A DNA stretch of 53,943 nt from Deltaproteobacteria bacterium (GTDB lineage Bacteria > Desulfobacterota > Desulfobacteria > Desulfobacterales > C00003060). Positions 18,161 to 46,796 of this stretch are shown here, piece by piece. The first letter of the stretch is position 1. Each line of letters begins with the position of its first letter. The notes under the pieces were generated by a model. It saw nothing but the letters and a program-made list of their open reading frames with translations. It was not told the origin of the DNA and ran no database searches. Location: positions 1 through 53,943 of the forward strand of contig JAFDFO010000005.1 in assembly GCA_019309815.1 (NCBI GenBank), in the 5' to 3' direction. The translations under genes were made by a program, and so were the position numbers.

Positions 18161-18175
18161 GAAGAGGCAACCACA

Positions 18176-21023: not shown

Positions 21024-21043
21024 GTTCGAAAACAGAGGAATCA

Positions 21044-22150: not shown

Positions 22151-22154
22151 AATT

Positions 22155-24029: not shown

Positions 24030-24043
24030 ATGGTAGACCGGCT

Positions 24044-25927: not shown

Positions 25928-25952
25928 TTCTTAAGTTTATTGCCTTTGTTTG

Positions 25953-26246
25953 TTATGACACGATCCGTTTGTTTGTAAAAAGACGCGTGGTGAATGCTAG
26001 TATAATGGCAAGGCCAAGCGTACCATAGAAAGCAAGCAAAGCCATTTTGAAAAGAGGGCGTAGGACGATAGCCTTGAAGTTCACATTGGCACGATAAATG
26101 GGAACCTCTTTCCCATCAACGTAAGCACGCCACCCTTCATCAAATCCGTCAGACCAGTACAAGATCCCGTGTTTGTCTGTCACAACATCTATACTGAATG
26201 CGTCATGTTCATATTCCCCCACGGAATACGAAAACTGATGATTCAT
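25953..26246 (-). CDS. C-terminal fragment of YfhO-like paralogue A (split off by a 1-nt frameshift)
   Basis: The 97-aa ORF aligns to residues about 800-900 of the 38571..41315 product (FSYSV..GILYWSDGFDEGWRA.VDGKEVPIYRANVNFKAIVLR) but lacks KGVSHIDFVFKHA. ATGA overlap with 26243..28612. Confidence 0.6.
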   Translation of the reverse strand: MNHQFSYSVGEYEHDAFSIDVVTDKHGILYWSDGFDEGWRAYVDGKEVPIYRANVNFKAIVLRPLFKMALLAFYGTLGLAIILAFTTRLFTNKRIVS

Positions 26247-28612
26247 GCCCGGATCCCCTTTTTCACAAAGTCAGTTGTTGATGTCTCAAGCTCAGCAAGA
26301 GAGCCGTCCACGTCTTCTCTATTAACCAGAACCCATTTACTCAGCAATTGAATGGCATCCTCGGGACCTAATTTGTTCAGATATGCAGCCACCTCATTGT
26401 CTTCCAGGGCAATTATGCCTTGCTTGAATTCAAAGGGGGGCTTTTCAACACAGAACATTTCTCTCAGGGCCAACGGTGGGATGCCGGAATTAATGAGTTC
26501 AAAGTAGTTCCTGAGGAGTAGAAAACTGCTCCATCGTCTGATGCTGAGAGCCAGCGTAATATCATCCAAGGTATAGGGATAAGGGATTGACTGGTTTTGA
26601 TTAATGGCCATCACAGGGGAAAACACGTAAGGTTGCCGATAGACAAGAGAAAGATACCGGATAGATTGAGCAGTTCTGCTGAGAAGAGACAACGGGGCAA
26701 TTCTTCTATAATGAATGACTTCCGGACTTTGGGCGTCTGTTTTGATGCCATAAGCTTCCCGGGGATGTGTCTGCCCACGGTATAGATAGGCGGTTAGTGC
26801 GACATGGTCGGTCAGTTCCCTAACTACACTTGCTGAAAAAACAATCAGAATGAGAGCAACAATGTATCCCTTCTTTGACAGCTGCCTGTGCGTCCTTATC
26901 AGAAGAAATAGGCAAAGGGGAAGACCAAGTAGTAAAAAGCTCTTGCGAAGAAATTCTGCATCATCATTTTGACAGAATGTGAGGACAAAAGCAATGTGGC
27001 CGGCCACCAAGCCAGCAAATAACCCTTTGTCCCCCAGGTCATTCCGAAGAATCCAACCGATGAAGACCAGGAGGATGATAAGAAGGAACAGATAGTTGGT
27101 TTCAGGATACCTAAGCTGTGTCATCCAGTTCACAAGGGCAATCACGGATCCCGAAAACAGAACAAACGCAACAATGGTATGGAGATGCTGGGTGCCAAGC
27201 CTGTCGTCGATCAGCGTCTTCAGGGCACCCCCTTTCCGGACAGCATCTGCTGGAAAGAGAGAACTGTTCCACGATGAGAAAAGGTGATTGAATCCCAAAA
27301 CATAGAAGTACAAAACGGTAAATAGAAAGAAGAGCACAAAACCATGGGTGTGCCTTGTGACCCAGAGAGGCGGATAAATATAATAGAGTGTTCTATGCAG
27401 CCCGCCGGCTGGTCCCAGCATCAAAAGTCCAAAACCTGCGGCAATAACGAGCCATACGGTTTTGAGTTGGTGCCTTCCAACCACAAAACCAAGAATAGCA
27501 ATGGCCCAAGGCAACAACCCTATGTACATATAGGCTTCTGAAGGGGTTCCCCACATACTTTTGTTGCTGGGGCCTGAAATGTGCCGATTACGTTCAGGAT
27601 AGACGATCTGGATAAAGTCCCAGATGGATGAAGAAGTACCCGTGTGTGTTATCAAACTGTAGGGCATAAGAATACCATGGTCTTCCGGCAGCGAGGTTCC
27701 TTCGTATTGCTGTGGAGACCCTTTGGGCTCTTGTTTTTCGTAACCGGCGTCCATCATCCTCGCCGGGAATACGTATTTGTCCTTTTCCAGCATAACAAGG
27801 ATGTTTGGCAACATCATCGCAACTACAATGACAAGCGTGACAGCAAACTTGAAGACAAACTTGTCGCTTTTCAGCAGTCCCCTTACAAGGTCTCGGCAAA
27901 ACAGCAGAAGGCCAACGGAAAAGAAGAGGATGAAAACCCACATCCCCGAGGAATAATAAGATTGCCAGTTGACTCCGATCAGAGCTGCAAGAATAAACCA
28001 GTTATGCCAGCGATAATCCCTATGGTATGTGATGCGCAAAAGAAAATATATGATGTATGGCACATACAAAAACTGATAAACTGCAGCGGCTTGCCTGAAG
28101 GGACTGAACATGAATGAAAAGTATAATAGAATGGGTATCAGAGAAACTCGAATGAATATGTTTGCAGCTAATGTGCGGAACACAATGTAGACCCCGAACA
28201 CCATCACGATATTTTGAACAAAGTGCACCCAGTTATATAGCGACACAAGGTCATTGCTACCGAGATACTTCCCCACGTAGATAGTCAATAAAGTGATAGG
28301 CTCTAATAGTCTCAGATGTATGACTATGGGATAGAAAGGCTCACCCCCATGCGTGAATGGATTCCACAAGGGGAAATGACCATGGATAATGCTTTCGGCA
28401 AAGAACTGAAAAACCGGATATCCCCAGTAAAGGTGGTCGTGGATGAATGTGGTTTCATGTAAAACCAACATGGAGCGCAAGGTATATATGAGAAAACCTA
28501 TCCCCAATGCTCCCGCTACAATTTCTATAGACAAGAAACGTCTGGCCACAGGTCGGTGGGCCTCTGCCGATCTGGTGTTATTCCGAGTCTTGTCCGGGAG
28601 GTCGGTGCTCAT
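26243..28612 (-). CDS. YfhO-like GT-C membrane glycosyltransferase, paralogue A (truncated at the frameshift)
   Basis: HDHLYWGYPVFQFFAESIIHGHFPLWNPFTHGGEPFY (YfhO-type first loop). Near-identical N-terminal 220 aa to 38571..41315. Confidence 0.7.
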   Translation of the reverse strand: MSTDLPDKTRNNTRSAEAHRPVARRFLSIEIVAGALGIGFLIYTLRSMLVLHETTFIHDHLYWGYPVFQFFAESIIHGHFPLWNPFTHGGEPFYPIVIHLRLLEPITLLTIYVGKYLGSNDLVSLYNWVHFVQNIVMVFGVYIVFRTLAANIFIRVSLIPILLYFSFMFSPFRQAAAVYQFLYVPYIIYFLLRITYHRDYRWHNWFILAALIGVNWQSYYSSGMWVFILFFSVGLLLFCRDLVRGLLKSDKFVFKFAVTLVIVVAMMLPNILVMLEKDKYVFPARMMDAGYEKQEPKGSPQQYEGTSLPEDHGILMPYSLITHTGTSSSIWDFIQIVYPERNRHISGPSNKSMWGTPSEAYMYIGLLPWAIAILGFVVGRHQLKTVWLVIAAGFGLLMLGPAGGLHRTLYYIYPPLWVTRHTHGFVLFFLFTVLYFYVLGFNHLFSSWNSSLFPADAVRKGGALKTLIDDRLGTQHLHTIVAFVLFSGSVIALVNWMTQLRYPETNYLFLLIILLVFIGWILRNDLGDKGLFAGLVAGHIAFVLTFCQNDDAEFLRKSFLLLGLPLCLFLLIRTHRQLSKKGYIVALILIVFSASVVRELTDHVALTAYLYRGQTHPREAYGIKTDAQSPEVIHYRRIAPLSLLSRTAQSIRYLSLVYRQPYVFSPVMAINQNQSIPYPYTLDDITLALSIRRWSSFLLLRNYFELINSGIPPLALREMFCVEKPPFEFKQGIIALEDNEVAAYLNKLGPEDAIQLLSKWVLVNREDVDGSLAELETSTTDFVKKGIRA

Positions 28613-28624
28613 AAGAACCGCATC

Positions 28625-30043
28625 CTAGTAGCCCTTTCGATATGTCCAAAGATACTTGATGGTCTTAAGGTAGGTTAGTTTTCTCTCTTTGTTGTACCTT
28701 AGAAAGGTATTGACAAGGTAGATATAGAAGAAAAGGTGTTTTGAGCGAACGTTTTTGGCCAAGAACAGAAACAGGGGCTTGAGCTTCGGGAATATCAGGC
28801 ATAGATGGGCTACTTTATGTATGTTGGCAAGGATCTCTTTGTCTTCTCTGAGTAAAACGGATCCTCTTACAAAAGACTCCGGCAAATCATCAAAAGAGTA
28901 GTCTGGTTTCAGTAGATTTTTCTTTATGCAATATTCTGCTATGCGAGTTCCGGGAAAGGGAAGGAAAATGGCGGTGAACATATAGTTTGTGCCCATCCTG
29001 ATATTCAAGTCGATTGTGGATACAGCATCCTCAATCGTTTCATCTGGCAAGCAAAACATGTTTGAAGTCTGCAATTCAATACCTTTATTCTTCAAAACTG
29101 CAGAGCATCTCAGGAGATCCTGATTTGTGATGTTTTTGTTCAACACAGTTCTCCTTAGCCGTTCATTTCCTGTTTCAACTCCAAAACTCACTGTATGGCA
29201 TCCTGCTTCGGCCAACGCTTTTGCATGCCTTTCTTTGATGGTTTTAGCATGTCCGGTGCAGATAAACGGAACGTTGACCTCTGATTTGTACAGCTGACAG
29301 AATTCTTCCAGCCATTTCAGGCTGAATACAAACAGATCATCACAAAAGAAGAAGGTTGAAGATCCGTAAGAATTCAGACACTGTTTTATTTCTTCTATGA
29401 AGAACCTGGGGGACTTTCTTCGAATATATCTACCAGCAGTCTTGAAAATCTTCTTGAGAAAGCTGTTTGAACAGAAAGCACAGTCAAACGGACATCCTCT
29501 TGAAGACATGAATATCTTCTGGTCGAGGTTTCTGAGTTCTGAATATCGATTGTAATAGATGGCACGGTCTTCTTTAAATGAATCCAGGTTCGTGGGAAGG
29601 CGAGCCACGCCCTGCAGAGTCGGAACGCCGTTTTCATAGCAGCCCATTCCCTGAACACCTTTGGGAGACCCTTCACCCCGTTCAAGCCGGTCAATAAACG
29701 AAGGAAATGCAACTTCGCCCTCACCTTGGCAGACATAATCCACACCATCTAACTTGAGGACGTCCATCGGATACATTGTGGCATGAATGCCCCCAACAAC
29801 AATGGGTACCTGAGGCATAAGTTGCTTTATTTCTGGAGACATCTTCTTAAGCCATCGATGCTCGGTAGACATGACGGAAAAGCACACTAAATCAGGTTTC
29901 AGGCTTCTCAACTTCGAAGTGAAATCAGGCTCACTGGCACTGATCAAAACATCGGTTTCATGTCCTTGTTGCTTCAACACATCAGATAAAGACATGATTC
30001 CAAAATAGGGAAACAGCTGTTTCTGAACAAAACATATCTTCAT
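28625..30043 (-). CDS. B12-binding-domain radical SAM enzyme
   Basis: N-terminal B12-binding-like fold (MKICFVQKQLFPYFGIMSLSDVLKQQGHETDVL) and SSRGCPFDCAFC. Start set at ATG 30043, preceded by AAGGGGA. Confidence 0.8.
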   Translation of the reverse strand: MKICFVQKQLFPYFGIMSLSDVLKQQGHETDVLISASEPDFTSKLRSLKPDLVCFSVMSTEHRWLKKMSPEIKQLMPQVPIVVGGIHATMYPMDVLKLDGVDYVCQGEGEVAFPSFIDRLERGEGSPKGVQGMGCYENGVPTLQGVARLPTNLDSFKEDRAIYYNRYSELRNLDQKIFMSSRGCPFDCAFCSNSFLKKIFKTAGRYIRRKSPRFFIEEIKQCLNSYGSSTFFFCDDLFVFSLKWLEEFCQLYKSEVNVPFICTGHAKTIKERHAKALAEAGCHTVSFGVETGNERLRRTVLNKNITNQDLLRCSAVLKNKGIELQTSNMFCLPDETIEDAVSTIDLNIRMGTNYMFTAIFLPFPGTRIAEYCIKKNLLKPDYSFDDLPESFVRGSVLLREDKEILANIHKVAHLCLIFPKLKPLFLFLAKNVRSKHLFFYIYLVNTFLRYNKERKLTYLKTIKYLWTYRKGY

Positions 30044-30070
30044 CAAAATCCCCTTATTCGCACTGTGTGG

Positions 30071-30088
30071 CTTGCAAGGCAGAAGCCT
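30071..30088 (-). promoter_or_regulatory. Candidate sigma54 promoter (-24 GG / -12 TTGCA)
   Basis: The reverse strand reads aGGCTTCTGCCTTGCA with canonical GG-N10-GC spacing, about 30 nt upstream of the ATG at 30043. 8 of 11 consensus positions match. Confidence 0.3.
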
Positions 30089-30689
30089 TTTCCCGCAAAA
30101 ACGAGACCATCTTCCGCAGCTTGCTGTTGCGTGCTCGTTTATGCGCCACACGCACACCAAGGCCTGTGTTCAATCATCGGGTCAGGTGCGGGGAAATTGG
30201 GAGCAACCTGCGGCCTCAACGGCATCAACCCGAAAACGCGCCACTTGCATGTCGAATTCCTGACAATGTCTTTCAGAAGCCCCGCTTCCTGGCTAATGAT
30301 TGCAGCGCCGGATGAGGCATTGATATTCAATGGGCTTGCGTATTAGCAGAAATTATATATATAATATACAGAATCCATTCAGGTCAAGGCATCGTGATTC
30401 TGAAGGTGGAGCTGGCAAAAGCGTGTAAAATCAAACGTATACGAGAGCAGGGCCCCATATTCAGGTACCGCAATTCCGTTTCATTTCAATATGAATGTAA
30501 AGGAAAAGAGGCCTCGGTTTCCGGTGAGGCAACTTGTGGTCGCCATGTAGTCCACACAGAACAACACCATTGTACCATATTACGTGTTTTTCACTTCGTT
30601 CAAGGTTGCTTCACTGAACACCCTTGTGTCCTGCGATCCAAGAAGTCCATGGCGCTTGCTACCTGGAATGACGATTCTCACATAAGGGT

Positions 30690-31217
30690 TTGTCCATGAC
30701 TGTGCTATTCTACGGCTCCCTTCTCTTTGGACTGGGCCTTGTCGTTCACGTCGTCATATGGCGCGTCCACCTCCCCAAAAGGCAAGCCAAGGTCATATTT
30801 CTGTTGTTTGCGGGGTTCCTTTTTTGCGGGTCTTACATTCTCTGGAAATATCGCCACGGGTTGTCTATCCTCGGTTTTCATCCCCCAAGTGATTTGGCCC
30901 AATATTTGCAGTTTTGGATCTACTATGTTTCGCTCACTTTGGCATACATGATCACATATTCGGCCATTGAGGCAGACAGCCCATCTCTCATCATCATAAT
31001 GAGAATCCATGAAGCCGGGAGCTCCGGTTTGGCAAAAGAGAGCTTGGAGGGCGTTATGAACGATAGAATTCTCATAGAACCGAGACTGAAGGATTTGCTG
31101 GTTGACAAGATGGCAGATTTTCAGGAAGGGAAATACCGACTAACGAAGAAAGGCGTCCTGATTGCACGGCTTTTTACGTTTTATCGTGGCATAATAAAGG
31201 CTGGCAAGGGGGGTTAA
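30690..31217 (+). CDS. Membrane protein with three TM segments and a C-terminal winged-helix-like domain, paralogue 1
   Basis: 175 aa. The C-terminal part GLAKESLEGVMNDRILIEPRLKDLLVDKMADFQEGKYRLTKKG resembles a wHTH wing (Y-x-LT-x-KG). Confidence 0.6.
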   Translation: MSMTVLFYGSLLFGLGLVVHVVIWRVHLPKRQAKVIFLLFAGFLFCGSYILWKYRHGLSILGFHPPSDLAQYLQFWIYYVSLTLAYMITYSAIEADSPSLIIIMRIHEAGSSGLAKESLEGVMNDRILIEPRLKDLLVDKMADFQEGKYRLTKKGVLIARLFTFYRGIIKAGKGG

Positions 31218-31224
31218 ACGATCG

Positions 31225-31761
31225 GTGCCACTGTTTCATATTCACATTCTTTCACCACTTTTCGGCCTACTGACGAACGTCGTCGTTCAATTATCACGAT
31301 GCAGGCATGGCAACAACCGGGGTTTGTTACGATCGGTCTTCGAGGGGTTCGTCAGTGGATATGCGACCGTGCTGGCGATTGAAGTAGCCTACTGTGTTTC
31401 AACGAAGGGGGATCTGGTGGAGTGTGTGGGCCAGATAACCCTCAGTACGATAACGTACGTCGCTTTAGGATACGGTTACTTCCATTTCATCAACTTGGGG
31501 GAGACTGCTCGGCGAGTTCGTATTCTTAGGGAGCTCTGGGAGTCTCAGGATGGTCTTTCTGTTGATGAGCTTCTGATGCGGTACAGTGCTTCGGAGATAT
31601 TTGGCATTCGCCTTCAGCGAATGATCAACAATGAACAGCTTGAGCTGCGCAACGGCAGATATTACATCGGAAAGTCCGTTATGCTGTATATGGCCAAAGC
31701 AATGGTGATGATGAAGTTGATTCTTCTCAAAAAACGAGGTGAATTCGAACAACAGCTGTAG
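31225..31761 (+). CDS. Membrane protein with a C-terminal winged-helix-like domain, paralogue 2
   Basis: 178 aa with the same architecture as 30690..31217 (GLSVDELLMRYSASEIFGIRLQRMINNEQLELRNGRYYIGK). Confidence 0.6.
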   Translation: MPLFHIHILSPLFGLLTNVVVQLSRCRHGNNRGLLRSVFEGFVSGYATVLAIEVAYCVSTKGDLVECVGQITLSTITYVALGYGYFHFINLGETARRVRILRELWESQDGLSVDELLMRYSASEIFGIRLQRMINNEQLELRNGRYYIGKSVMLYMAKAMVMMKLILLKKRGEFEQQL

Positions 31762-31839
31762 TGGGTGCGCTACTTGAAGTGGGAGTTTGCGACAAACTGC
31801 CCTTTGGCTTAACAGCAAATTTTGGAAGAGAGTTGGCCA

Positions 31840-33459
31840 ATGATTCTAATCAGTCCTAGCGGCGATCGACCCAAGAAACTGGGTGTTTTTGCCAAGTATG
31901 TTCCGTTATCAGTCCCTTATGGCATAGGTGCCTTAGCAGGGTATTTGCATCATAAAGGCAAAAAGGCGGAAGTCCTGGACGAGGAAATCGAACCAGCCAA
32001 TCCGGACGTGTTTCGATCAAAAACAAAGGATCTTACTCCCCCATACATTTTTGGGATTTCCTCTCTTACGGCAGGTATAGCAAGAAGCATTGAGATCGCA
32101 AGGACTATCAAGAGTATTCCCGATTTCTCGGATGCAAAGGTCATCTTTGGCGGGATTCATCCCACTGTTCTGCCAGAAGACGTTCTACAATCCGGATACG
32201 CCGATATTGTAGTCAGAGGTGAGGGAGAGAAGGCTCTCGAAATACTCTATGACAGAATAAAAGATGGGAAAGACTACTCTGATGTAGAAGGAATCTCCTT
32301 CCTTAGCAATGGAAACACCATACACAATGATCGCGCAGAGCTGGTGGACTTGGATACTCTTCCTTCCTTTCCTTATGACATGTTTTACCGATATTCGTCG
32401 AGATATGCTTTAGGTTTTATCACGAGCTCACGGGGGTGCCCCTATGATTGCATCTTCTGCAGCCAGCGCAGCATTTCAGGAAAGTTCTATCGTTTCAGAT
32501 CGCCGGAGACTGTTGTGGAAGAAATCGAGTATCTTTTCAAATATAGGGGCCAGAGGCATCTGACATTTCAGGATGACAATTTTCTCCCTGTCAAGGACAG
32601 GACCATGAAACTGTGCGAGCTCATTATTAGTAGGTTTGGAGATAGTATTAGCTTTGATTGCCAGGCCCGTGCTGATAACGTTGATGACGAGGTCCTGGCC
32701 GTGATGAAACAGTCCGGTTGCCGGCTAATCCATGTTGGGATAGAGAGTGCCAGTGACCGGTTACTTTCCTTGGTTCGGAAAAGGGAAACCCTCCAGCAGA
32801 TTATTGATGGGGTTCGTCTAATCCAAAAACATGGGATTCAGGTTTCAGGTACTTTTATTCTGGGGTTTCCGACCGAGACGTCGGAAGATAGAAAAGCTGC
32901 CTATGAGTTGGCAAAAGAATTGGATCTTGCTTTTGTCAGGTTCAACAATGCTACACCCTATCCAGGAACCAAGTTGTACGAAATGGCAAAAACTCAGGGT
33001 CGGTTCCTGCCAGGTGATAATTGGGAAAATCTCAACGCATGCGGTTCGTTGACTGAGAATCCCTTTAGGCGAAACAAACTCTCCTTTGTCCCTGACGGAG
33101 TGAGTGAGGGGGAGCTGAGAAATGATATTATCAAATACAACATGTTCTTTTCACTGAGACCCAAGAGAGTGTTTCGTCTGGTGTTCAATAGATTCGGACC
33201 TGCTGGGTGGTTTGAACTCCCAGAGAATTGGTTTCTCAAACCTGGAGAGTGGTATTCCTTATTAAGATTTTCAGCCAAAATTGGAATAAACTTCCTTGTT
33301 ATGTTGGCAGGGATTCTGAAATACAAGCTGAGGTCACTAAACGATCAAGGCATGCCACCCCAGCAGTCCGCTGAATATGCAGCTTCAGCCCGCAACACAT
33401 ATCTACGCAAAAAAAGGCAACACATCCCTGGTACGTTTCAACAGCAGAGTTGGAGATGA
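31840..33459 (+). CDS. B12-binding-domain radical SAM enzyme
   Basis: SSRGCPYDCIFC and an N-terminal B12-binding-like domain. ATG 31840 is preferred over the TTG at 31822. Confidence 0.8.
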   Translation: MILISPSGDRPKKLGVFAKYVPLSVPYGIGALAGYLHHKGKKAEVLDEEIEPANPDVFRSKTKDLTPPYIFGISSLTAGIARSIEIARTIKSIPDFSDAKVIFGGIHPTVLPEDVLQSGYADIVVRGEGEKALEILYDRIKDGKDYSDVEGISFLSNGNTIHNDRAELVDLDTLPSFPYDMFYRYSSRYALGFITSSRGCPYDCIFCSQRSISGKFYRFRSPETVVEEIEYLFKYRGQRHLTFQDDNFLPVKDRTMKLCELIISRFGDSISFDCQARADNVDDEVLAVMKQSGCRLIHVGIESASDRLLSLVRKRETLQQIIDGVRLIQKHGIQVSGTFILGFPTETSEDRKAAYELAKELDLAFVRFNNATPYPGTKLYEMAKTQGRFLPGDNWENLNACGSLTENPFRRNKLSFVPDGVSEGELRNDIIKYNMFFSLRPKRVFRLVFNRFGPAGWFELPENWFLKPGEWYSLLRFSAKIGINFLVMLAGILKYKLRSLNDQGMPPQQSAEYAASARNTYLRKKRQHIPGTFQQQSWR

Positions 33460-34847
33460 GAGTATTACTAGTTAGGGCAAGACCCACCAAGGTGGAGAAT
33501 ACGAGACTTCCGAAAAGTCTATCATCGGAGGTGGGATATGTTATGCCGCTCGGGCTTGCCTCCATCGCTGCATATTTGCGTGGAAAAGGCGTTTCAGTGG
33601 GTATCATAGATGCTGAGGCAGAAGAACTTTCAATTGATCAAGTCAAGAGGAAGATGGCGAGAATCGGGCCGGACATAGTCGGCATAACCAGTATGACGCC
33701 AACAGTTCATGATGACCTTGCGGTGGCCAGGGCATCTCATGAACTCGGAATCAAGGTTGTCATGGGTGGCCCCCAAATAAATGCTATGCCCGAAGAGACC
33801 ATGCAGTTTAAGTTCGTCGATTTTGCCGTGCGTGGCGAAGGCGAATATCCCATGTTGAAGATAATTCAGGCGATTGACAATGAATTGCCCTTTAGTGATG
33901 TTCCTGGGATTGTCTACAGGGACGAGGATGGCAGGGTTATAATGACGCCTCCATTCATTCATGATGATCTTGATGAGTTGCCGCCTCCAGCAAGGGACCT
34001 TTTACCCCATGAGCGTTATGCGGCCATCATTGCCAGGGGCAGACTGACCACGCTTTGCCCGGGGAGAGGGTGTCCTTTCAGGTGTGGCTTCTGCTTTAAG
34101 CAGCCATCGGACCGAAAGATTCGATTTAGAAGTCCGGAAGTGGTTGCAGATGAAATGGAAGAAGTCATAGACAGGTATGGGATACAAGAAATCAATTTTG
34201 TTTCGGATACATTCACCCTCAAGAAGAGTTTTGTGGAGGGGTTATGTGAAGAGTTGCTGAGTAGAGGCACAAAAGTGTCGTGGATTGCTCCTACAAGAGT
34301 TGATTCTGTCACGCCTGCATTACTTGGACTGATGAAAAAGGCGGGCTGTAGAAGTTTGAGGTTCGGCATCGAGAGTGGTTCGGAAAAGATACTAAGACTC
34401 ATGAACAAGGATACCAATAAGGAATATACCCTTCAAGTCTTCAGGTGGGCAAAGGAGGTGGGGCTTGAGACCTTTGCATACCTTATAATAGGGTACTTGC
34501 ATGAAACAGAGAAAGAAATAAAAGAGACTCTGGCTTTTGTTAAAGAACTAAAACCGGATTTACTCATGTATAATGCTGCGACCCCCCTTCCCAAAACAAG
34601 ATTGTTCGAGCAAGCTGTGGAGGCAGGGATCGTCGAGAAGGACTATTGGGGGAAGTTCCTGTTGGATGAAAACTATCCGAGAATCCCCTATTTAATGAAG
34701 GATACACAGAAGTGGATAGATAAAGCTTATCGCGACTTCTTCTTTTCGCCGCGATTTCTGTTCAAGAAGATGATAGAATTCCGAGGAAAGAATATTAGGA
34801 ATTATTTCAAGGCAGCCAGAGGAATAGTTGGACTCAGGAAACAATGA
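33456..34847 (+). CDS. B12-binding-domain radical SAM enzyme
   Basis: PGRGCPFRCGFC. ATG 33456 forms an ATGA overlap with the upstream stop. Confidence 0.8.
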   Translation: MRVLLVRARPTKVENTRLPKSLSSEVGYVMPLGLASIAAYLRGKGVSVGIIDAEAEELSIDQVKRKMARIGPDIVGITSMTPTVHDDLAVARASHELGIKVVMGGPQINAMPEETMQFKFVDFAVRGEGEYPMLKIIQAIDNELPFSDVPGIVYRDEDGRVIMTPPFIHDDLDELPPPARDLLPHERYAAIIARGRLTTLCPGRGCPFRCGFCFKQPSDRKIRFRSPEVVADEMEEVIDRYGIQEINFVSDTFTLKKSFVEGLCEELLSRGTKVSWIAPTRVDSVTPALLGLMKKAGCRSLRFGIESGSEKILRLMNKDTNKEYTLQVFRWAKEVGLETFAYLIIGYLHETEKEIKETLAFVKELKPDLLMYNAATPLPKTRLFEQAVEAGIVEKDYWGKFLLDENYPRIPYLMKDTQKWIDKAYRDFFFSPRFLFKKMIEFRGKNIRNYFKAARGIVGLRKQ

Positions 34848-35389
34848 GTATTACCCAGAAGAAACGTGCCAAGATAATTGCAGATGCTTACAGGAATTGG
34901 GGCGCAGAAGGGAAGAAGGCCCTGGATGTTGGGTGTGGAAATGGTGTGGTATCAGATGTCTTGGTCGCAGAGCTTGGATTGAACCTGTGTGGCACTGACA
35001 TAATTGACTATCGAACGACGAACATTCCCTTTAAACAAATGGAAAATCCAGCTGAACTTCCTTTCGATGACCTGTCCTTTGATTTTGTCATGTTCAACGA
35101 TGTTTTGCACCATTCGGAACACATAGAATCACTGATTCTGGAAGGAAAAAGGGTTGGACACGCACTCCTGATGTTTGAAGACAAACAGAGTTTTCTATTA
35201 ACGATCGTTGACGTCGTGTTAAATCATATTTATTCCTCGAGGATGCCGGTTCCCCTAAACTTCAAAACCAGAGAAGAGTGGTGCTTGCTGTTTGACAAGC
35301 TCGGTCTTGAGTGGGAGGTGGGGGAGGTCTCGTATCCGTTTTGGTATCCCTTTCAGCATTTTGCCTTCAGATTGGTCAAGCGAATATGA
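34844..35389 (+). CDS. Class I SAM-dependent methyltransferase
   Basis: ALDVGCGNGV motif I, 181 aa, ATGA overlaps at both ends. Confidence 0.75.
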   Translation: MSITQKKRAKIIADAYRNWGAEGKKALDVGCGNGVVSDVLVAELGLNLCGTDIIDYRTTNIPFKQMENPAELPFDDLSFDFVMFNDVLHHSEHIESLILEGKRVGHALLMFEDKQSFLLTIVDVVLNHIYSSRMPVPLNFKTREEWCLLFDKLGLEWEVGEVSYPFWYPFQHFAFRLVKRI

Positions 35390-37551
35390 ACGTGGACCAA
35401 GATAATCCCAAGGGTATTATGCGATTGCTAAGAAGGAACTGGGAGTATTTTGCCCTGGTCTTCTTGTTTCTTTGGATGGTAGCTTCTCTTGCACCTTTGC
35501 CCTTTGTTCAATGTTCAGACGGTTACCATGTCTGGTTACCAAGGCTCTCCTATGCAGTGAGAGAGATGTTAAGCGGGCAAATACCTTTTTGGAACGAATT
35601 CCAGTTCTGTGGAACATTACTGCTGGCGGACGGCAATACTAACATACTCAATCCCATGTCAGTATTTTACGTTTTCTTTAGTTTGGCATGGGCATATACG
35701 TATGGTGTGCTATTGCTGTTGGGTGTTTCAATAGCTGGTTCATGGCTTTATTTTCGGGAAAGAGATTTGTCGAAGACGGCTTCACTGGTTGGAACCCTCG
35801 GATATACTCTGAGTGGTCAGGTTGTTTTTTGGAGCCTTTATCATGGTATGAATCTGTGTTTGGCTCTTTTTCCTCTCACTCTGTTTGCTTTTAGAAGACT
35901 GGAGAAAATAAACGCACAGCGCGACCAACATGACAAGGACCGTGCTGTGAAAATTGGGTGGAGGTTGCTTGCTTTTTTCTTGATGTTCTTTTCTGCTTTA
36001 GGTGGATTCATTCAGTTCGCTTTTATTTCGGCCGCGTCCGTGTTCGTTGAGGGAATTGAGCAATGGTCTGTTGGTGGAGTGAAAAGAGCTCTGAAAAGCA
36101 GGGGGCTCACTGTATTGTTGGCAGTGGCTTCGGCATCGGTCGTCGTTATACCGATAATTGAAGCAAGTATTTTCAGCCATCGCAAACTGGTACCGTATTT
36201 TAAAGGCCTTGTGGCTGATAGATTTTCTTTATGGTCAATGATGTTCTGGGGCAGTTCCTTTGACGGGTGTGACTACCCAAATTACTTCTACTACATTGGC
36301 GTGGTTATCATTGCTCTGTCTGTTTTTGCAATAAGAAAGCATTTCAGGAAAGCAGTTTCCGATCCTTTTATTGTTTATTCATGTATTTTCCCGGCTGTTT
36401 TATTGGCTGTTTACCTGGGAGTTTTGCCAAAGACTTTTCAATTTGGGATCGATTCAGATCCATGGCGTGGGATGTTTGTTTTTGCTTTGGCGTTGTCAAT
36501 ACTTGGGGCAGCCGGGACCGATAAGTATGTCAGGAAGGTAATGAACGAGAAGAGATTAGTGTTACCTCCTTTTGAATTGATACTTGCCGGCCTCATTTCG
36601 CTTGGCATATATGGTGCTACGCCGTATCATCCCGATAAAATGAACATCGGGTTCTTGGGCATATTGATACTCTCAGGCGTTGTTTTGTCCATCGTACTGA
36701 AGAAGGAAGAACCCAGGGTTAAAGCTGTTGTGTCGTGTGTTTGGCTTGTTCTGTTACTGGTTGCCAACAGCTTTGTACCCGCTGGATTGTACCTTGCGCA
36801 TAACGTTATACGTAAACCGGTGGTGGACCCGTGGCAAATAGAAGGGTTGCCGGCTGCAATGCTTTCTGGTGAGGGAAGGTTTTTGACGATAGGGTATTAT
36901 ACTGGAGAGCTCGAAGACTGGGGTATATTCAACAGGATGCGAGCAATAGGTGGTTACGGATCTTTCTTCCCGAGGTCAGTCTTTACGAGAATGAGAGATG
37001 AGGGACTTCTCCCATCCAGCTTCCATGCGGCCACGCATTACCTAAACAATAATAATACTGACCCCAACATCCTTGCTAGGTACGGGGTCTTGTACCTCAT
37101 AGAAAGGAAATCGGCTAATGGCTCAAGGGTCGGTTGGGAACTTGCTAAAGCAGTTCCAGGCGGTGTGATATACATGAACCCAAGATACGTAGGGCGTGCT
37201 TACCTTGTGAATGAAGAGGGCAACATTCTTAAAGGCGCTAGGCTGGTGGAAAATACGAATTCATATGTGAGAATCGTTGTTGAAGCAAATGCAGGTGATA
37301 CACTTGTCCTGGCTGACTCGTGGTTTCCAGGCTGGAGATGTTTTGATAATGGCGAAAGGGTCGAGGGCTTCAATGCTGACGGATTCAGGGGCTATCGAAT
37401 ACAAGCTTCGGGACGTCACGAGATTGAATGGATCTACAGGTCATCATCATTTTTCGTGGGGCTTGTGATTTCTTCGGTCAGCTTCATCGCCTTTTTGGCA
37501 TTGGTTATCTGGGAAGTGCGGTCCAATAAGAAAAGGAGGATTGGTCGGTAG
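35386..37551 (+). CDS. YfhO-like GT-C membrane glycosyltransferase
   Basis: SDGYHVWLPRLSYAVREMLSGQIPFWNEFQFCG first loop. C-terminal ADSWFPGWRCFDNGERVEG...GRHEIEWIY beta-domain and a terminal TM. Start at ATG 35386. Confidence 0.7.
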   Translation: MNVDQDNPKGIMRLLRRNWEYFALVFLFLWMVASLAPLPFVQCSDGYHVWLPRLSYAVREMLSGQIPFWNEFQFCGTLLLADGNTNILNPMSVFYVFFSLAWAYTYGVLLLLGVSIAGSWLYFRERDLSKTASLVGTLGYTLSGQVVFWSLYHGMNLCLALFPLTLFAFRRLEKINAQRDQHDKDRAVKIGWRLLAFFLMFFSALGGFIQFAFISAASVFVEGIEQWSVGGVKRALKSRGLTVLLAVASASVVVIPIIEASIFSHRKLVPYFKGLVADRFSLWSMMFWGSSFDGCDYPNYFYYIGVVIIALSVFAIRKHFRKAVSDPFIVYSCIFPAVLLAVYLGVLPKTFQFGIDSDPWRGMFVFALALSILGAAGTDKYVRKVMNEKRLVLPPFELILAGLISLGIYGATPYHPDKMNIGFLGILILSGVVLSIVLKKEEPRVKAVVSCVWLVLLLVANSFVPAGLYLAHNVIRKPVVDPWQIEGLPAAMLSGEGRFLTIGYYTGELEDWGIFNRMRAIGGYGSFFPRSVFTRMRDEGLLPSSFHAATHYLNNNNTDPNILARYGVLYLIERKSANGSRVGWELAKAVPGGVIYMNPRYVGRAYLVNEEGNILKGARLVENTNSYVRIVVEANAGDTLVLADSWFPGWRCFDNGERVEGFNADGFRGYRIQASGRHEIEWIYRSSSFFVGLVISSVSFIAFLALVIWEVRSNKKRRIGR

Positions 37552-37599
37552 GTGGGATTGGGCCGAAAGTCTCAGAAACACCCTGGCCAAGAAATTTGT

Positions 37600-38352
37600 A
37601 TGTTCAGAGACAGCAAAGTAATCGTGGTCATGCCGGCGTACAATGCGGCCAAGACACTGCGCAAGACCTATGAAGAGGTGATGGCTCAGGAGATAGTGGA
37701 CCTGATCGTTGTGGTTGACGACGGGAGCATGGATGAGACTGTCTCTATTGCCAAGACTTTACAGCACACGATTGTCTACACCCATGACAGGAACAGAGGC
37801 TATGGTGCCAACCAAAAATCATGTTACAAACTGGCCCTGGAACAGGGTGCCGACATTATCATCATGGTCCATCCGGACTATCAATATACCCCGAAGCTGA
37901 TCCCATCCATGGCGGGCATGATCGGAAATGGTCTTCATCCATGTGTGCTGGGTTCCAGAATTCTCGGGGGGTATGCCCTGAAGGGCGGAATGCCTATTTG
38001 GAAATATGTATCGAATCGATTTCTTACCTTTGTCGAAAACATGTTTCTGGGGGCCAAGCTCTCAGAATACCATACGGGATACAGGGCCTTTTCCAGGGAA
38101 CTGATACAGCGCTTACCACTTCAAGTGAATTCTGATGATTTTCTGTTTGACAATCAGATGCTCGCACAGATCCTGTGGTTCGGTTATACGGTTGCCGAGA
38201 TCAGCTGTCCAACCAAGTATACTGCGGAGTCTTCAACGATTAATTTATATCGGAGCATTAAGTATGGTTTTGGATGTTTGTTCACGGGCCTGATATTTCG
38301 TCTCGCTAAAATGAAGATCATGAATTCGAAGTTGTTCCCTGACGCTAGGTAG
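37600..38352 (+). CDS. GT2 glycosyltransferase (CsbB/GtrB-like)
   Basis: VIVVMPAYNAAKTL ... VVVDDGSMDET ... HPDYQY. Start set at ATG 37600. Confidence 0.8.
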   Translation: MFRDSKVIVVMPAYNAAKTLRKTYEEVMAQEIVDLIVVVDDGSMDETVSIAKTLQHTIVYTHDRNRGYGANQKSCYKLALEQGADIIIMVHPDYQYTPKLIPSMAGMIGNGLHPCVLGSRILGGYALKGGMPIWKYVSNRFLTFVENMFLGAKLSEYHTGYRAFSRELIQRLPLQVNSDDFLFDNQMLAQILWFGYTVAEISCPTKYTAESSTINLYRSIKYGFGCLFTGLIFRLAKMKIMNSKLFPDAR

Positions 38353-38555
38353 TTACCCACTCAAGTTTCGCACCCATTGTGTCAAGCTGTTATCCGACAG
38401 AAACTATGATGGAGACCCTCCCACATATCGCGTTTCGGAAAACAACACGACCTCTCAGTTTCACGCTATGCATTGAGGCTAAACGCCTGGCAGTTTTGAA
38501 CTTTGTGCGAAATAGAGGTGCGAAAGTTGGGCAACTTATTTCTGTGAAACAACAC

Positions 38556-41315
38556 TAGGATATGGTTTTTATGAGCATCGACCTGCCGGACAAGACAGAG
38601 AATAACACCGGATGGGCAAAGGCTGGCCGACCTGTGGCCGGACGTTTCTTGTTGATAGAAATTGTGGCGGGTGTATTGGGAATAGGTCTTCTCATATATA
38701 CCTTGCGCTCCTTGTTGGTTTTACACGAAACCGCATTCATCCACGACCACCTTTACTGGGGGTATCCGATTTTCCAATTCTTCGCCGAAAGCATTATCCA
38801 TGGTCATTTCCCCTTATGGAATCCATTCACTCATGGGGGTGAACCTTTTTATCCCATAGTGGTACACCTTCGACTGTTAGAGCCCATTACGTTGTTGACT
38901 ATCTACGTGGGGAAATATCTCGGGATCAATGACCTTGTGTCACTATATAACTGGGTGCACTTTGTTCAGAATATCGTGATGGTGTTCGGGGTCTACATTG
39001 TGTTCCGCACATTGGCTGCGAATATATTCATTCGAGTTTCTTTGATACCCATCTTATTATACTTTTCATTTATGTTCAGTCCGTTCAGGCAGGCTGCTGC
39101 AGTTTATCAGTTTTTGTATGTGCCATACATCATGTATTTTCTTTTGCGCATCACGTACCATAGGGATTATCGTTGGCATAACTGGCTTCTTCTTGCAGCC
39201 CTGATCGGGGTCAACTGGCAATCTTATTATTCCTCCGGGATATGGGTTTTGTTCTTGTTCTTTTCCTTAGGTCTTTTGCTATTTCACAGGGATCTCTTGA
39301 AGCAACTACTAAGGAGCGACAAGTTCATCTTCAAGTTTGCAGTGGCACTGGCAATTGTATGTGCCATGATGCTGCCTAATATCGTTGTTCTGCTGGAAAA
39401 AGATAAATACGTATTCCCCGCAAGGATGAAAGATCCTGGATATCAGGAAAAGACTCCCGTGCAGACGGGAGGGACCCAACAATGGGAAGGGACCGCTTTA
39501 TCTGAAGACCATGGTATTCTAATGCCCTACAGCTTAATAACGCATACGGGCACATTTTCATCCGTCTGGGACTTTGTTCAGACCATCTACCCAGAACCCA
39601 ATCCATTTATCTCAGGCCCCGAAGTTGAGAGTGAATCAGGGTCAGAAGCCTACATGTATATAGGCATGTTGCCCTGGATCATTGCTGTCTTAGGCTTTGT
39701 GATTGGGAGCCACAAACTAAAATCCCTGTGGTTGCTCATTGCCGCGGGATTTGGCCTCTTGATGCTGGGACCCGCCGGCGGTCTGCATAGAATACTTTAT
39801 TATGTTTATCCTCCTCTCTGGTTCACCAGGCATACGCATGGTTTTGTGCTCTTTTTTCTATTTACCGTTTTGTACTTCTACGTTTTAGGGTTTAATCACA
39901 TTTTTTACTCCTGGAACACTTCTCTCTTTCCAACAGATGCTGTCAGAAAGCGCGGTATCCTGAAACTTCTGATCAATGATAAACTTGGCACCCGGCATCT
40001 TCATAGCATCGTAGCATTTATTCTGTTTTCGGGATCCATTGTTTTGCTCGTGTATTGGATGACAAGGCTTCGCTATCCTGAAACGCACTATTTATTTCTT
40101 CTTATCATCTTGCTTGTTATTGTTGGTTTTATTTTTCGAAATGACCTGGGAAAAAGAGGAATATTCGCCAGCTTAGTTGTTGGTCAGATTTGTTTTGTTG
40201 CCGTGTTCTGCAAAGGTGGTAGTACAGAGTTTCTCACAAAAGGCGTTTTACTGCTTGGTGCTCCGGTTGGCCTATTCCTCCTGGTTAAAACACAAGACAC
40301 CTTGCGAAAGAAGAGGTATATCATCGCTCTGTTGTTGATTATGCTTGGGGGAAGCTTTGTGGGCGATTTGCGTGGCCATCTGGCACTGATCTCCTATTTA
40401 TATCGTGGCCAGCAACATCCAAAGGACGCTTTTAACATCAAGACAGATGTGCACGAGCCCGGGTTTAATCAATACAGAAGTGCTGCCCCGTTCTCTCTTC
40501 TTAGCGCAACCCGCGAATCTGTGAGGTACCTTTCGCTAATTTATCGTCAGCCTTATGTGTTCTCCCCGGTTTTGGCAATTGAAGGGAATCCTGAGAGTAA
40601 ACATCCAGAAACTTTAAATGACTTTAGAACAGCTCTCAACTTCAGAAGATGGACCAGTTTCTTGCTACTCAGAAACTACTTTGCACTTATCAACTCCGGC
40701 ATTCCGCCGTTAGCCATGAAAGAAATGTTCTGTGTCGGGAAGCCTGTGTTTCAATTCAAACAAGGCATAATCGCCATGAGAGACAATGAGGTTGCAGCAT
40801 ATCTTAACAAATTAGGTCCCGAGGATGCCATTCAATTGCTGAGCAAATGGGTTCTGATCAACAGAGAAGACGTGGATGCTTCCCTCGCCGGTTTTGAGAT
40901 GTCTCAGATCCAAAGTGAAACAGTGGTCGATAATGTTTCTCCTGCAAAGGGAGACCTGGATGTGAATGGTCAATTTTCGTATTCGGTAAAGAAATATGAA
41001 CCCAACTCATTCAGTATTGACGTGGCTACGGACACACACGGGATCTTGTACTGGTCCGATGGATTCGATGAAGGGTGGCGTGCTTGCGTTGATGGGAAAG
41101 AGGTCCCCATTTATCGTGCCAATGTGAACTTCAAGGCTATTGTGCTCCGGAAAGGGGTCAGTCATATTGACTTCGTTTTTAAGCACGCTCCGTTCAAAAT
41201 GGCATTGCTTGTTTTCTACGGGGTCCTTATACTTGCTATTATATTAGCCATAACAACATGGTTTTATGAAAAAGAAACAAATCTCATTACGAGGAAGGGC
41301 AGGAATGGCTTATAA
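38556..41315 (+). repeat. Inverted duplication, arm B (partner 25953..28627)
   Basis: See arm A. Confidence 0.85.
38571..41315 (+). CDS. YfhO-like GT-C membrane glycosyltransferase, paralogue B (intact)
   Basis: Full-length counterpart of 26243..28612 plus 25953..26246. Start at ATG 38571 matches the start of copy A (MSxDLPDKT), with AGGA 10 nt upstream in both. Confidence 0.75.
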   Translation: MSIDLPDKTENNTGWAKAGRPVAGRFLLIEIVAGVLGIGLLIYTLRSLLVLHETAFIHDHLYWGYPIFQFFAESIIHGHFPLWNPFTHGGEPFYPIVVHLRLLEPITLLTIYVGKYLGINDLVSLYNWVHFVQNIVMVFGVYIVFRTLAANIFIRVSLIPILLYFSFMFSPFRQAAAVYQFLYVPYIMYFLLRITYHRDYRWHNWLLLAALIGVNWQSYYSSGIWVLFLFFSLGLLLFHRDLLKQLLRSDKFIFKFAVALAIVCAMMLPNIVVLLEKDKYVFPARMKDPGYQEKTPVQTGGTQQWEGTALSEDHGILMPYSLITHTGTFSSVWDFVQTIYPEPNPFISGPEVESESGSEAYMYIGMLPWIIAVLGFVIGSHKLKSLWLLIAAGFGLLMLGPAGGLHRILYYVYPPLWFTRHTHGFVLFFLFTVLYFYVLGFNHIFYSWNTSLFPTDAVRKRGILKLLINDKLGTRHLHSIVAFILFSGSIVLLVYWMTRLRYPETHYLFLLIILLVIVGFIFRNDLGKRGIFASLVVGQICFVAVFCKGGSTEFLTKGVLLLGAPVGLFLLVKTQDTLRKKRYIIALLLIMLGGSFVGDLRGHLALISYLYRGQQHPKDAFNIKTDVHEPGFNQYRSAAPFSLLSATRESVRYLSLIYRQPYVFSPVLAIEGNPESKHPETLNDFRTALNFRRWTSFLLLRNYFALINSGIPPLAMKEMFCVGKPVFQFKQGIIAMRDNEVAAYLNKLGPEDAIQLLSKWVLINREDVDASLAGFEMSQIQSETVVDNVSPAKGDLDVNGQFSYSVKKYEPNSFSIDVATDTHGILYWSDGFDEGWRACVDGKEVPIYRANVNFKAIVLRKGVSHIDFVFKHAPFKMALLVFYGVLILAIILAITTWFYEKETNLITRKGRNGL

Positions 41316-41468
41316 GGTATTTCAAGAGAAATCTAATTGCTCGTTTGTTACAGGCGGCGAACTTGCTGTGTAACAGTGAGCGGTGACTCCGGGCGAGAGC
41401 CCGGTGCCTCTCACATACACGCTTTGTGAATACGCAGCTATTTACATAGAAGGGCGTCCTCGATCAGG

Positions 41469-43499: not shown

Positions 43500-43544
43500 C
43501 AGCACTTGCTGGGCAAGCCCCTCTCTCCTCTTTTGTGTTGTTTC

Positions 43545-46696: not shown

Positions 46697-46796
46697 TGCA
46701 AGAACCTATCTCAAAAACACGTTTAAGACGCCATGTTCCGGTTTTTTCGCCGCCTGTTCACTTAAGCCACAAACAAGCATGGAGAAACAAAAACAC

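Follow-up and report, generated by a model that had tools for sequence, protein, structure and literature searches.

A class B radical SAM gene conserved beside glycosyltransferase genes in an uncultured Desulfobacterales genome: a putative route to tailored polyprenyl-phosphate-linked sugars

The window analyzed here is the whole of a 53,943-nt stretch of DNA (contig JAFDFO010000005.1 of GenBank assembly GCA_019309815.1, positions 1 to 53,943, forward strand) from an uncultured Desulfobacterales metagenome-assembled genome (MAG). The region 28625–38352 holds three genes for B12-binding (class B) radical S-adenosylmethionine (SAM) enzymes (RS1, RS2, and RS3), two small membrane-protein genes (TMA and TMB), a small methyltransferase gene (MT), a YfhO-like gene for a glycosyltransferase of the GT-C fold, and a gene for a family 2 glycosyltransferase (GT2). 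An earlier note, made from the sequence alone, had taken these genes as one cassette that may produce a radically modified lipid-linked sugar. We find that the association of a class B radical SAM enzyme with a putative polyprenyl-phosphate-sugar synthase and a GT-C is real, widespread, and uncharacterized, and that the region itself is composite, i.e., a junction of independently conserved modules and not a single unit. It appears to belong to an envelope-glycan island of 40 kb, where we infer four gene sets for polyprenyl-phosphate-sugar-dependent extracytoplasmic glycosylation, each with one class B radical SAM enzyme.

Module B and its conservation

Module B consists of four genes on the forward strand: RS3, its putative core tailoring enzyme (33450–34847, with ATG at 33456 as the likely start), MT (34844–35389, coding for a 181-aa class I SAM methyltransferase), the YfhO-like gene (35386–37551), and GT2 (37600–38352, within an open reading frame (ORF) that opens at GTG 37552). 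Scans with RS3 of genome and metagenome collections, together with contig look-ups, gave 94 loci (cited below by L numbers), which were annotated by phmmer against the window proteins and by a hydropathy count. Neighbors were counted at 23 non-redundant loci whose RS3 orthologue has at least 57% identity, the denominators being the loci in which the respective side was visible. A GT2 gene (61–68% identity) was found immediately upstream of RS3 in 15/19 loci and a gene for a ~180-aa MT immediately downstream in 14/17, while a multi-transmembrane (TM) protein (at least 350 aa and at least six TM segments) was encoded within three genes of RS3 in 14 of the 16 loci. The hosts of this GT2-RS3-MT-GT-C arrangement include Omnitrophota, Desulfobacterales, a Cyanobacteria-labelled MAG (UBA9971), and many metagenomes, and two close relatives, L102 and the Desulfobacterales MAG L001, retain the complete order TMA-TMB-RS2-RS3-MT-YfhO-GT2-Yf917 (Yf917 being the giant membrane-protein gene downstream of the region; the GT2 orthologue in L102 has 250 aa). 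The gene association is thus conserved in many other genomes, and such synteny across phyla rules out a chance juxtaposition.

GT2-RS3-MT stays constant and the accompanying GT-C varies by locus (YfhO-like or PMT_2/ArnT-like), which points to the sugar donor rather than the acceptor as the probable target of the radical SAM enzyme. The minimal conserved module B contained no sugar-nucleotide gene. At one locus, seen in four overlapping metagenomic contigs (L013, L014, L026, and L030), RS3-MT stands beside BacA and DedA/VTT genes, proteins with roles in polyprenyl-phosphate recycling; in this lineage (e.g., L013, 12410–13918), RS3-MT is directly followed by BacA (undecaprenyl-diphosphatase family) and DedA/VTT, with a divergent YfhO-type gene upstream. 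Another group of loci (L020, positions 6340–8277, and the equivalents in L021-L023) has four prepilin-type genes with an N-terminal methylation motif directly upstream of GT2-RS3-MT-YfhO, a hint that pilins might serve as acceptor in these organisms, by analogy with TfpW in Pseudomonas.

The GT2 protein matches Glycos_transf_2 (PF00535) with 82.6 bits, and its top NCBIfam matches are AglJ (62.3 bits), PpgS (52.7), and a dolichyl-phosphate (Dol-P)-hexose transferase (46.3), none of which reaches its cutoff (325–375). Its longest sequence match in the PDB is a Dol-P-mannose synthase (5mlz, residues 2–172), and a chondroitin synthase matched a shorter part of it with a marginally better E-value. 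The earlier assignment of this gene as a CsbB/GtrB-like GT2 holds for the family, not for the type. CsbB and GtrB have C-terminal TM helices, and a hydropathy scan (mean Kyte-Doolittle hydropathy of at least 1.6 over 19 residues) found no TM helix in GT2; because of this lack, GT2 appears closer to the soluble PpgS/DPM1 type and is best described as a putative soluble or peripheral glycosyltransferase resembling polyprenyl-phosphate-sugar synthases. The small class I methyltransferase was correctly recognized before, as the MT protein matches Methyltransf_11 (42 bits) and Methyltransf_23 (41 bits); a search against PDB sequences returned nothing beyond weak, unnamed methyltransferases.

The YfhO-like protein only marginally passes the Pfam YfhO cutoff (28.8 vs. 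28.5 bits), although PF09586 is the precomputed annotation on close orthologues, and it had no meaningful sequence match in the PDB. Its AlphaFold2 (AF2) model, built on the family alignment (predicted local distance difference test (pLDDT) 86.4, predicted TM-score (pTM) 0.88), shows at least 10 TM helices, a beta-rich C-terminal extracytoplasmic domain, and a TM helix at the terminus. The best Foldseek matches of this model are AftD (E = 1.6e-8) and ArnT (3.3e-7), followed by AglB, STT3, PglB, EmbC, and DPY19; the GT-C matches have probabilities of 0.99–1.00, and E-values range from 1.6e-8 to 1e-4 for AftD, ArnT, AglB, STT3, and PglB. The model thus predicts a GT-C fold, in agreement with the earlier note. 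The family comprises 27 clusters, several of them on contigs that also bear RS3 orthologues, and it shares an invariant Asp82 and the nearly invariant Asp45 and Glu60, all located after TM1 in what is predicted, from the charge distribution, to be outer loop 1.

The radical SAM enzymes and the UbiA-linked relatives of RS3

The three radical SAM genes and their cluster motifs, CPFDCAFC, CPYDCIFC, and CPFRCGFC, had been read correctly, as ORF calling and Pfam agree on RS1 (28625–30046, reverse strand, SRGCPFDCAFC), RS2 (31822–33459, forward strand, SRGCPYDCIFC), and RS3 (GRGCPFRCGFC). By sequence criteria (CxxxCxxC within the Radical_SAM domain PF04055 and an N-terminal B12-binding domain PF02310) all three classify as class B radical SAM enzymes: PF02310 is matched with 82.6, 54.4, and 75.9 bits by RS1, RS2, and RS3, respectively (cutoff 32.1), and PF04055 with 69, 102.6, and 103.6 bits (cutoff 29.5). 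A fourth enzyme, RS4, is encoded further downstream (46940–48379, reverse strand). Pairwise identities among RS1-RS4 are only 21–32%, a level that rules out a recent duplication, and by sequence the four are old paralogues.

None of the four reached the cutoff of a curated NCBIfam family, including HpnJ, BchE, and HpnR. The top match of RS1 is rSAM_ladder_B12 (114.7 bits, cutoff 360), that of RS2 and RS4 is HpnJ, and RS3 shows a near-tie between BchE and HpnJ; the HpnJ profile (TIGR03471, cutoff 577.6) gave 84.6, 184.9, 177.4, and 207.8 bits for RS1, RS2, RS3, and RS4, and the BchE profile (TIGR02026, cutoff 481.35) gave 100.5, 163.9, and 178 bits for RS1, RS2, and RS3. The top scores to the profiles of HpnR (TIGR04367, cutoff 650), PhpK (TIGR04479, cutoff 600), and MgmA-type methylases (TIGR04014, cutoff 360) were 95.7, 130, and 154.4 bits, respectively. 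By this classification (best scores of 115–185 bits against cutoffs of 360–578) the radical SAM enzymes of the region lie outside the families with known unrelated substrates, into which they might have fallen. The closest solved structures to RS1-RS3 are MgmA (9ccb, a glutamine C-methylase of methyl-coenzyme M reductase), AprD4, and OxsB, with MgmA the nearest for RS2 and RS3, and AprD4 the nearest for RS1 and in second place for RS2 and RS3. RS1 (aa 412–430) and RS2 (aa 480–498) are each predicted to end in a hydrophobic helix, as would suit enzymes that work at the membrane; RS3, RS4, MT, and the GT2s showed no hydrophobic segment in the hydropathy scan.

The nearest relatives of RS3 outside module B (41–49% identity, from DPANN archaea and other sources) score 430–470 bits to RS3 vs. 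~190 to RS2 and 216–254 to RS4, and form a sister clade that lacks the GT2 and MT neighbors. In 10 of its 20 clusters, a UbiA-family gene with an 8-TM product is located within two genes of the RS3-like gene, and the three UbiA-family proteins that were tested scored 234.2 (cutoff 234), 213, and 212 bits as decaprenyl-phosphate phosphoribosyltransferase. The UbiA-linked loci include L036-L038, L041, L006, L007, L032, and L040, and several of them also carry a PHP phosphatase gene and one for a TM-anchored methyltransferase (the latter in L036-L038). Two unrelated kinds of putative polyprenyl-phosphate-sugar synthase hence flank one radical SAM clade. Since the UbiA-type enzyme uses phosphoribosyl pyrophosphate (PRPP), an unlikely tailoring substrate, tailoring in this clade should follow attachment to the lipid. 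The UbiA-linked loci look like an uncharacterized polyprenyl-phosphate-pentose pathway, in which the radical SAM enzyme would take the place that DprE1/E2 have in mycobacteria.

Neighboring modules and the wider island

The earlier idea of a single cassette was not upheld, as the genes outside module B belong to other conserved sets. TMA (30696–31217, 173 aa), TMB (31225–31761, 178 aa), and RS2, all on the forward strand, are assigned on the basis of gene neighborhoods to module A, the remainder of which lies at 13937–22150 and 38562–41315. The upstream half (13937–22150, forward strand; Pfam and NCBIfam) codes for an epimerase of the short-chain dehydrogenase/reductase (SDR) type, an HldE-like kinase/nucleotidyltransferase, an SIS isomerase, a first radical SAM/SPASM enzyme, the alpha and beta subunits of a thiamine pyrophosphate (TPP)-dependent E1 enzyme, GT2a, and a second radical SAM/SPASM enzyme (SPASM2). 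Yf917 (38562–41315, forward strand), a membrane protein of 917 aa in which 13 hydrophobic segments were counted and whose C-terminus matches Pfam YfhO (32.8 bits), is likely the GT-C of the module.

Module A with TMA/TMB was kept in all seven other loci that were read (L011, L095-L097, and L099-L101), among them those of the cultured Nitrospina gracilis 3/211 (L095) and of a Latescibacterota MAG. In 7/7 a GT2a-type GT2 stands beside TMA/TMB, with a SPASM2-type radical SAM enzyme and a TPP-dependent E1/transketolase alpha/beta pair nearby; SIS and HldE-like sugar-activation genes are usual in these loci, as is either an RS2-type radical SAM enzyme with a Yf917-type protein of 893–1304 aa or a PF03706 flippase-like protein. 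RS2 relatives (38–40% identity) directly follow TMA/TMB in L095 and precede a Yf917-type GT-C in L097, where the Yf917 relative is 48% identical; membrane proteins of 893–1304 aa occupy the Yf917 position in L097, L099, and L100, and a Yf917 gene is also present in L102. The set of SIS, HldE-like, SDR epimerase, two SPASM, TPP E1, and GT2 genes was also observed in L002, L004, L011, and L095-L101. SPASM2 (21044–22150) has 69–75% identity among MAGs of Desulfobacterales, Omnitrophota, and Latescibacterota and unassigned metagenomic contigs, an unusually high value across phyla that suggests horizontal transfer or strong constraint.

TMA and TMB had been described as membrane winged-helix proteins, a description that is supported at fold level only for TMA and is no more than suggested by sequence for TMB. 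Neither has a match in Pfam or NCBIfam, and none of the 254 clusters of the TMA family in the protein database is named. The AF2 model of TMA (pLDDT 83.5) predicts three TM helices followed by a C-terminal, putatively cytoplasmic helix-helix-helix-hairpin-helix domain, whose succession of elements agrees with a winged helix and for which nearly all top Foldseek matches are winged-helix proteins (MarR, MexR, YodB, CggR, and others); these matches are weak, with E-values of at least 0.05, none at or below 0.001, and probabilities of up to 0.99 among those listed. TMB is a remote paralogue of TMA rather than an ordinary one: BLAST finds no similarity between the two, and they are joined by iterative profile search only, with jackhmmer from either converging on the same loci, which suggests that TMB may share the TM and winged-helix architecture. 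A TMA gene and a TMB-like gene stand in tandem in every locus read.

Downstream of RS1, across a gap of 12 nt, lies a split paralogue of Yf917 (25953–28612, reverse strand; 76% amino acid identity), made up of a 789-aa ORF (26243–28612) and a 97-aa ORF (25953–26246), the latter matching the YfhO C-terminus with 22.2 bits; twelve hydrophobic segments were counted in the split protein. The succession of a B12 radical SAM gene and a Yf917-type gene recurs in L002, L012, L097, and L100, and the split paralogue is likely the GT-C partner of RS1 (module C). The two giant membrane-protein genes form a 2.6-kb inverted repeat around the cassette (26059–28629 on the reverse and 38554–41149 on the forward strand; 2612 aligned nt, 77.8% identity). 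The two ORFs of the left copy overlap by ATGA, and this copy, which may be a pseudogene or the product of a sequencing frameshift, lacks a linker of ~30 aa and a further ~12 residues near the C-terminus.

The fourth set, module D (45836–53479, reverse strand; Pfam), comprises a YdjC deacetylase, RS4, GT2c, a methyltransferase, GT87, and YfhO2. RS4-like genes adjoin GT2c-like genes and genes for multi-TM proteins in L057 and L063. The YdjC protein scores 185.4 bits against the HpnK profile (cutoff 232.6), and neither a squalene-hopene cyclase nor an HpnH equivalog was found in the window by the Pfam and NCBIfam scans; these cutoffs and the missing hopanoid context rule out that module D, or RS2 and RS3, belong to HpnIJK.

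The window contains ten GT-C-like genes (PMT_2, YfhO, Yf917, and GT87 types), an exceptional density for 54 kb. Apart from the genes described above, these include five of the PMT_2 type (ArnT/PMT-like) at 12169–13923, 22155–25927, and 41469–45494, three of which fall below the Pfam gathering score and two of which are fused to tetratricopeptide (TPR) repeats. The G+C content is 0.43–0.48 over the central island (22001–42000) and 0.50–0.53 in positions 1–10000, a shift compatible with horizontal acquisition of the glycan island. Upstream of it, a bacterial dynamin-like GTPase of 756 aa (2992–5262, forward strand; Dynamin_N, 64 bits) is encoded among housekeeping genes (a glyceraldehyde-3-phosphate dehydrogenase-like gene, a GlgC/GlmU-like nucleotidyltransferase gene, and DapB). 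The genes of the region had been described as mostly joined by ATGA overlaps, which overstates the case, as only the RS2/RS3, RS3/MT, and MT/YfhO junctions are of this kind and the remaining ones are gaps of about 0 to 78 nt. Promoter/terminator scanning of 25800–41600 gave counts of 21 vs. 24.0 and 17 vs. 14.4 in shuffled sequence, i.e., no excess, and no operon boundaries could be drawn. The tRNA and Rfam scans returned no matches; as the Rfam scan was empty, no cobalamin riboswitch is predicted.

Proposed pathway, alternatives, and related systems

We interpret these modules as systems for the radical tailoring, probably C-methylation, of polyprenyl-phosphate-linked sugars that would afterwards be transferred by GT-Cs, a reading to which we give about even confidence. 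In module B, where every chemical step is derived from synteny and homology, soluble GT2 would, at the cytoplasmic face of the membrane, charge polyprenyl phosphate with a common hexose or N-acetylhexosamine taken from a nucleotide sugar, and RS3 would then carry out a radical reaction on the lipid-linked sugar. This reaction would most likely be a C-methylation via methylcobalamin, for which we hold a slightly better than even expectation, the alternatives being epimerization, ring contraction, or deoxygenation/dehydration. The translationally coupled MT could add an O- or N-methyl group, the tailored donor would be flipped across the membrane by a flippase, and the YfhO-like GT-C would move the sugar to an extracytoplasmic acceptor, maybe pilins in some Omnitrophota-like loci. 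Module A may follow the same logic with a more elaborate heptose-derived sugar, probably with a C2 branch, built by the heptose-type activation genes, the TPP E1 alpha/beta pair, and the two radical SAM/SPASM enzymes. As a low-confidence guess, TMA and TMB might form a heterodimeric membrane adaptor that anchors the soluble enzymes, or possibly a flippase, while RS1 would serve the neighboring, possibly decayed, GT-C paralogue.

Several points weigh against this reading. Everything in it beyond domain identity and synteny is inferred, and gene order does not tell whether a nucleotide sugar is tailored ahead of GT2 or the sugar is tailored once it is linked to the lipid. AprD4 has the same B12-binding domain and yet is not known to use cobalamin, so sequence cannot settle whether the enzymes bind it; the top profiles of RS3 are those of non-methylases, and MgmA, the best match of RS3 among solved structures, methylates a peptide. 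The donor and the polyprenyl phosphate acceptor of GT2 are likewise deduced, its scores being far below every NCBIfam equivalog cutoff, and MT or GT2 is missing in some orthologue loci (L005, L009/L018). Lastly, no flippase (GtrA, GtcA, MATE, Wzx, or PF03706) was found among the window genes searched with Pfam; PF03706 proteins are present in the related loci L012, L096, L100, and L101.

The most serious alternative, although we consider it unlikely, retains the lipid-linked substrate and replaces methylation by another reaction, such as an HpnJ-like ring contraction, an AprD4-like dehydration, or a 2'-/3'-epimerization by which, under anoxia, DprE1/E2 or SDR epimerases would be replaced. Most characterized class B radical SAM enzymes are methylases, as is MgmA, the nearest solved structure of RS2 and RS3, which speaks for methylation; AprD4, by contrast, is the best solved relative of RS1 and the second for RS2 and RS3. 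The composition of module D (YdjC, radical SAM, and GT2) equals that of HpnK/J/I, and HpnJ and BchE, the families of the top NCBIfam matches of RS2, RS3, and RS4, are both non-methylases (PMC9204698), but none of these scores exceeds about a third of its family cutoff, and sequence networks place HpnJ in one cluster with two methylases, Fom3 and MoeK5 (PMC9204698). The radical SAM enzyme of the sister clade occupies the position that an epimerase has in mycobacteria and Citrobacter, beside a polyprenyl-phosphate-ribose synthase and a phosphatase (PMC11127046), which would fit this alternative. The earlier proposal of a radically modified lipid-linked sugar for GT-C transfer gains from the synteny and the UbiA-linked clade, with the radical step as either a methylation or a rearrangement.

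Somewhat less probable still, in our estimation, is that the radical SAM enzymes and MT tailor the nucleotide sugar in the cytoplasm before it is loaded by GT2, as in the classical route to C-methyl and deoxy-sugars, the rest of the pathway being the same. Most known sugar-tailoring radical SAM enzymes act on soluble substrates (DesII, and GenK and Fom3: PMC9204698), the lack of hydrophobic segments in RS3, RS4, MT, and the GT2s fits such a substrate, and module A offers SIS, HldE-like, and epimerase genes together with two radical SAM/SPASM enzymes. This route is at odds, however, with the lack of a sugar-nucleotide gene in the minimal module B, with the C-terminal hydrophobic helices of RS1 and RS2, and with the tie of the sister clade to a phosphoribosyltransferase that uses PRPP, for which no nucleotide sugar exists. 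It is only because of the UbiA-linked clade that we favor the tailoring of a lipid-linked sugar over that of a nucleotide sugar.

A role in the modification of membrane lipids or of the polyprenol carrier itself (as for HpnP/HpnR, GDGT (glycerol dialkyl glycerol tetraether)-modifying, or ladderane-type enzymes), with the radical SAM genes merely sharing an island with glycosyltransferases, seems improbable to us: the ladderane-associated lipid-biosynthesis profile that heads the matches of RS1, the hydrophobic helices of RS1 and RS2, and the precedents named in the earlier note point that way, but all profile scores are far below their cutoffs, the Pfam and NCBIfam scans found no lipid-synthesis gene in the window, and close linkage, in many cases with gene overlap, to putative sugar loaders of the GT2 or UbiA type and to GT-Cs recurs across phyla. 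We give least credence, and very little, to peptide or protein substrates (by maturases of ribosomally synthesized and post-translationally modified peptides (RiPPs) or MgmA-like enzymes acting on a glycosylation acceptor, e.g., pilins, or on an unannotated small peptide), for which the presence of ApyD, rSAM_ocin_1 (RiPP), and MgmA among the profile and structure matches and the prepilin genes directly upstream of module B in L020-L023 would speak. The profile scores, however, lie below the cutoffs, most loci lack pilin genes, as do the annotated genes of the window, the cassette showed no ORF resembling a precursor peptide, no protease, and no RiPP recognition element, and the conserved neighbors are putative sugar loaders.

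If the radical tailoring of lipid-linked sugars is correct, it would extend the widespread surface decoration by polyprenyl-phosphate sugars and GT-Cs by a new tailoring layer, in which the lipid-linked donor undergoes radical chemistry, and assign substrates to several large orphan clades within the cobalamin radical SAM enzymes, a class that ranks with the least characterized of all enzymes. Unusual branched or methylated surface sugars would then be expected in Omnitrophota, Desulfobacterales, Nitrospina, and DPANN archaea, whose envelopes are, to our knowledge, essentially unstudied. In its broadest form, which we regard as possible and rather short of probable, the RS3 family, and by extension RS1, RS2, and RS4, would be the first radical SAM enzymes to act on polyprenyl-phosphate monosaccharides, yielding C-methylated or rearranged sugars that GT-Cs bring to the surface (pilins, S-layers, lipopolysaccharide) in anaerobes of several phyla and in DPANN archaea, with TMA/TMB as a new adaptor or flippase. 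The system is tractable, as module B has only four genes and module A occurs in the cultured Nitrospina gracilis 3/211, although the island is one of many uncharacterized glycan islands in MAGs.

Our literature search found no paper linking radical SAM enzymes with YfhO, GT-Cs, or polyprenyl-phosphate sugars, and nothing relevant on a heptose/radical SAM/transketolase/glycosyltransferase gene cluster. A 2026 review of B12 radical SAM enzymes does not mention lipid, sugar, or polyprenyl, and another from 2026, on the modification of lipids by radical SAM enzymes, does not mention polyprenyl, undecaprenyl, or dolichol. The closest known architecture is that of the three-component systems, i.e., GtrA/B/C, CsbB-GtcA-YfhO (PMC7389260), and the polyprenyl-phosphoribose synthase, MATE flippase, and GT136 of Citrobacter youngae (PMC11127046), with which the modules share the logic of a cytoplasmic polyprenyl-phosphate-sugar synthase, here putative, and a GT-C. 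The systems described so far are not known to contain a class B radical SAM enzyme or a small MT, whereas the modules here have the former and module B also the latter; conversely, no recognizable flippase accompanies the modules, and the TM helices that GtrB and CsbB possess are missing from GT2. The analogy with the teichoic acid systems of Firmicutes, drawn in the earlier note, is mechanistic only and does not extend to the hosts, here Desulfobacterales, Omnitrophota, and Nitrospina. Donor diversification in the pentofuranose systems is the task of an auxiliary SDR epimerase that acts on the polyprenyl-phosphate-pentofuranose (Kelly et al., PMC11127046), and the same kind of polyprenyl-phosphate-ribose synthase is found beside the UbiA-linked relatives of RS3; the term "radical SAM" appears nowhere in that PNAS paper (PMC11127046).

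The mycobacterial decaprenylphosphoryl arabinose (DPA) and PpgS/Rv3779 pathways are also similar, in that a polyprenyl-phosphate sugar is tailored on the lipid (epimerization by DprE1/E2; conversion of N-acetylgalactosamine to galactosamine) and then used by a GT-C. TfpW, which arabinosylates the pilin of Pseudomonas aeruginosa, is a GT-C encoded beside the pilin gene (bioRxiv 10.1101/2020.04.19.049825), a parallel to the prepilin genes upstream of module B that consists of adjacency in few metagenomic loci. Both differ from the modules described here in that tailoring is done by flavin/NAD oxidoreductases or deacetylases, not by radical SAM enzymes. With regard to the chemistry, the one methylase precedent is MoeK5, the target of which is a sugar in a prenyl-phosphoglycerate-linked glycan. 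This cobalamin radical SAM C-methylase of moenomycin biosynthesis, which co-clusters with HpnJ in sequence networks (PMC9204698), is of the same enzyme class as RS1-RS4, as are GenK, GenD1, and Fom3, but all four belong to actinomycete secondary-metabolite pathways that have no known GT-C partner. The formation of bacteriohopanetetrol cyclitol ether, in which HpnI, HpnK, and HpnJ act on lipid-linked N-acetylglucosamine (PMC13459092, PMC9204698), uses a GT2 to join a sugar to a lipid and a radical SAM enzyme of the B12 type to remodel the lipid-linked sugar, much as is proposed here, and module D shares with it a YdjC/HpnK-like deacetylase. It differs in sequence (177–208 bits in the window vs. 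the 577.6 of HpnJ, and 185 vs. the 232.6 of HpnK), in the hopanoid genes that the window lacks, and in the fate of the sugar, which the GT-Cs of the island would pass to another acceptor and not keep as a lipid head group. HpnI/K/J is the single pathway-level precedent for the chemistry on a lipid-linked sugar that we propose here.

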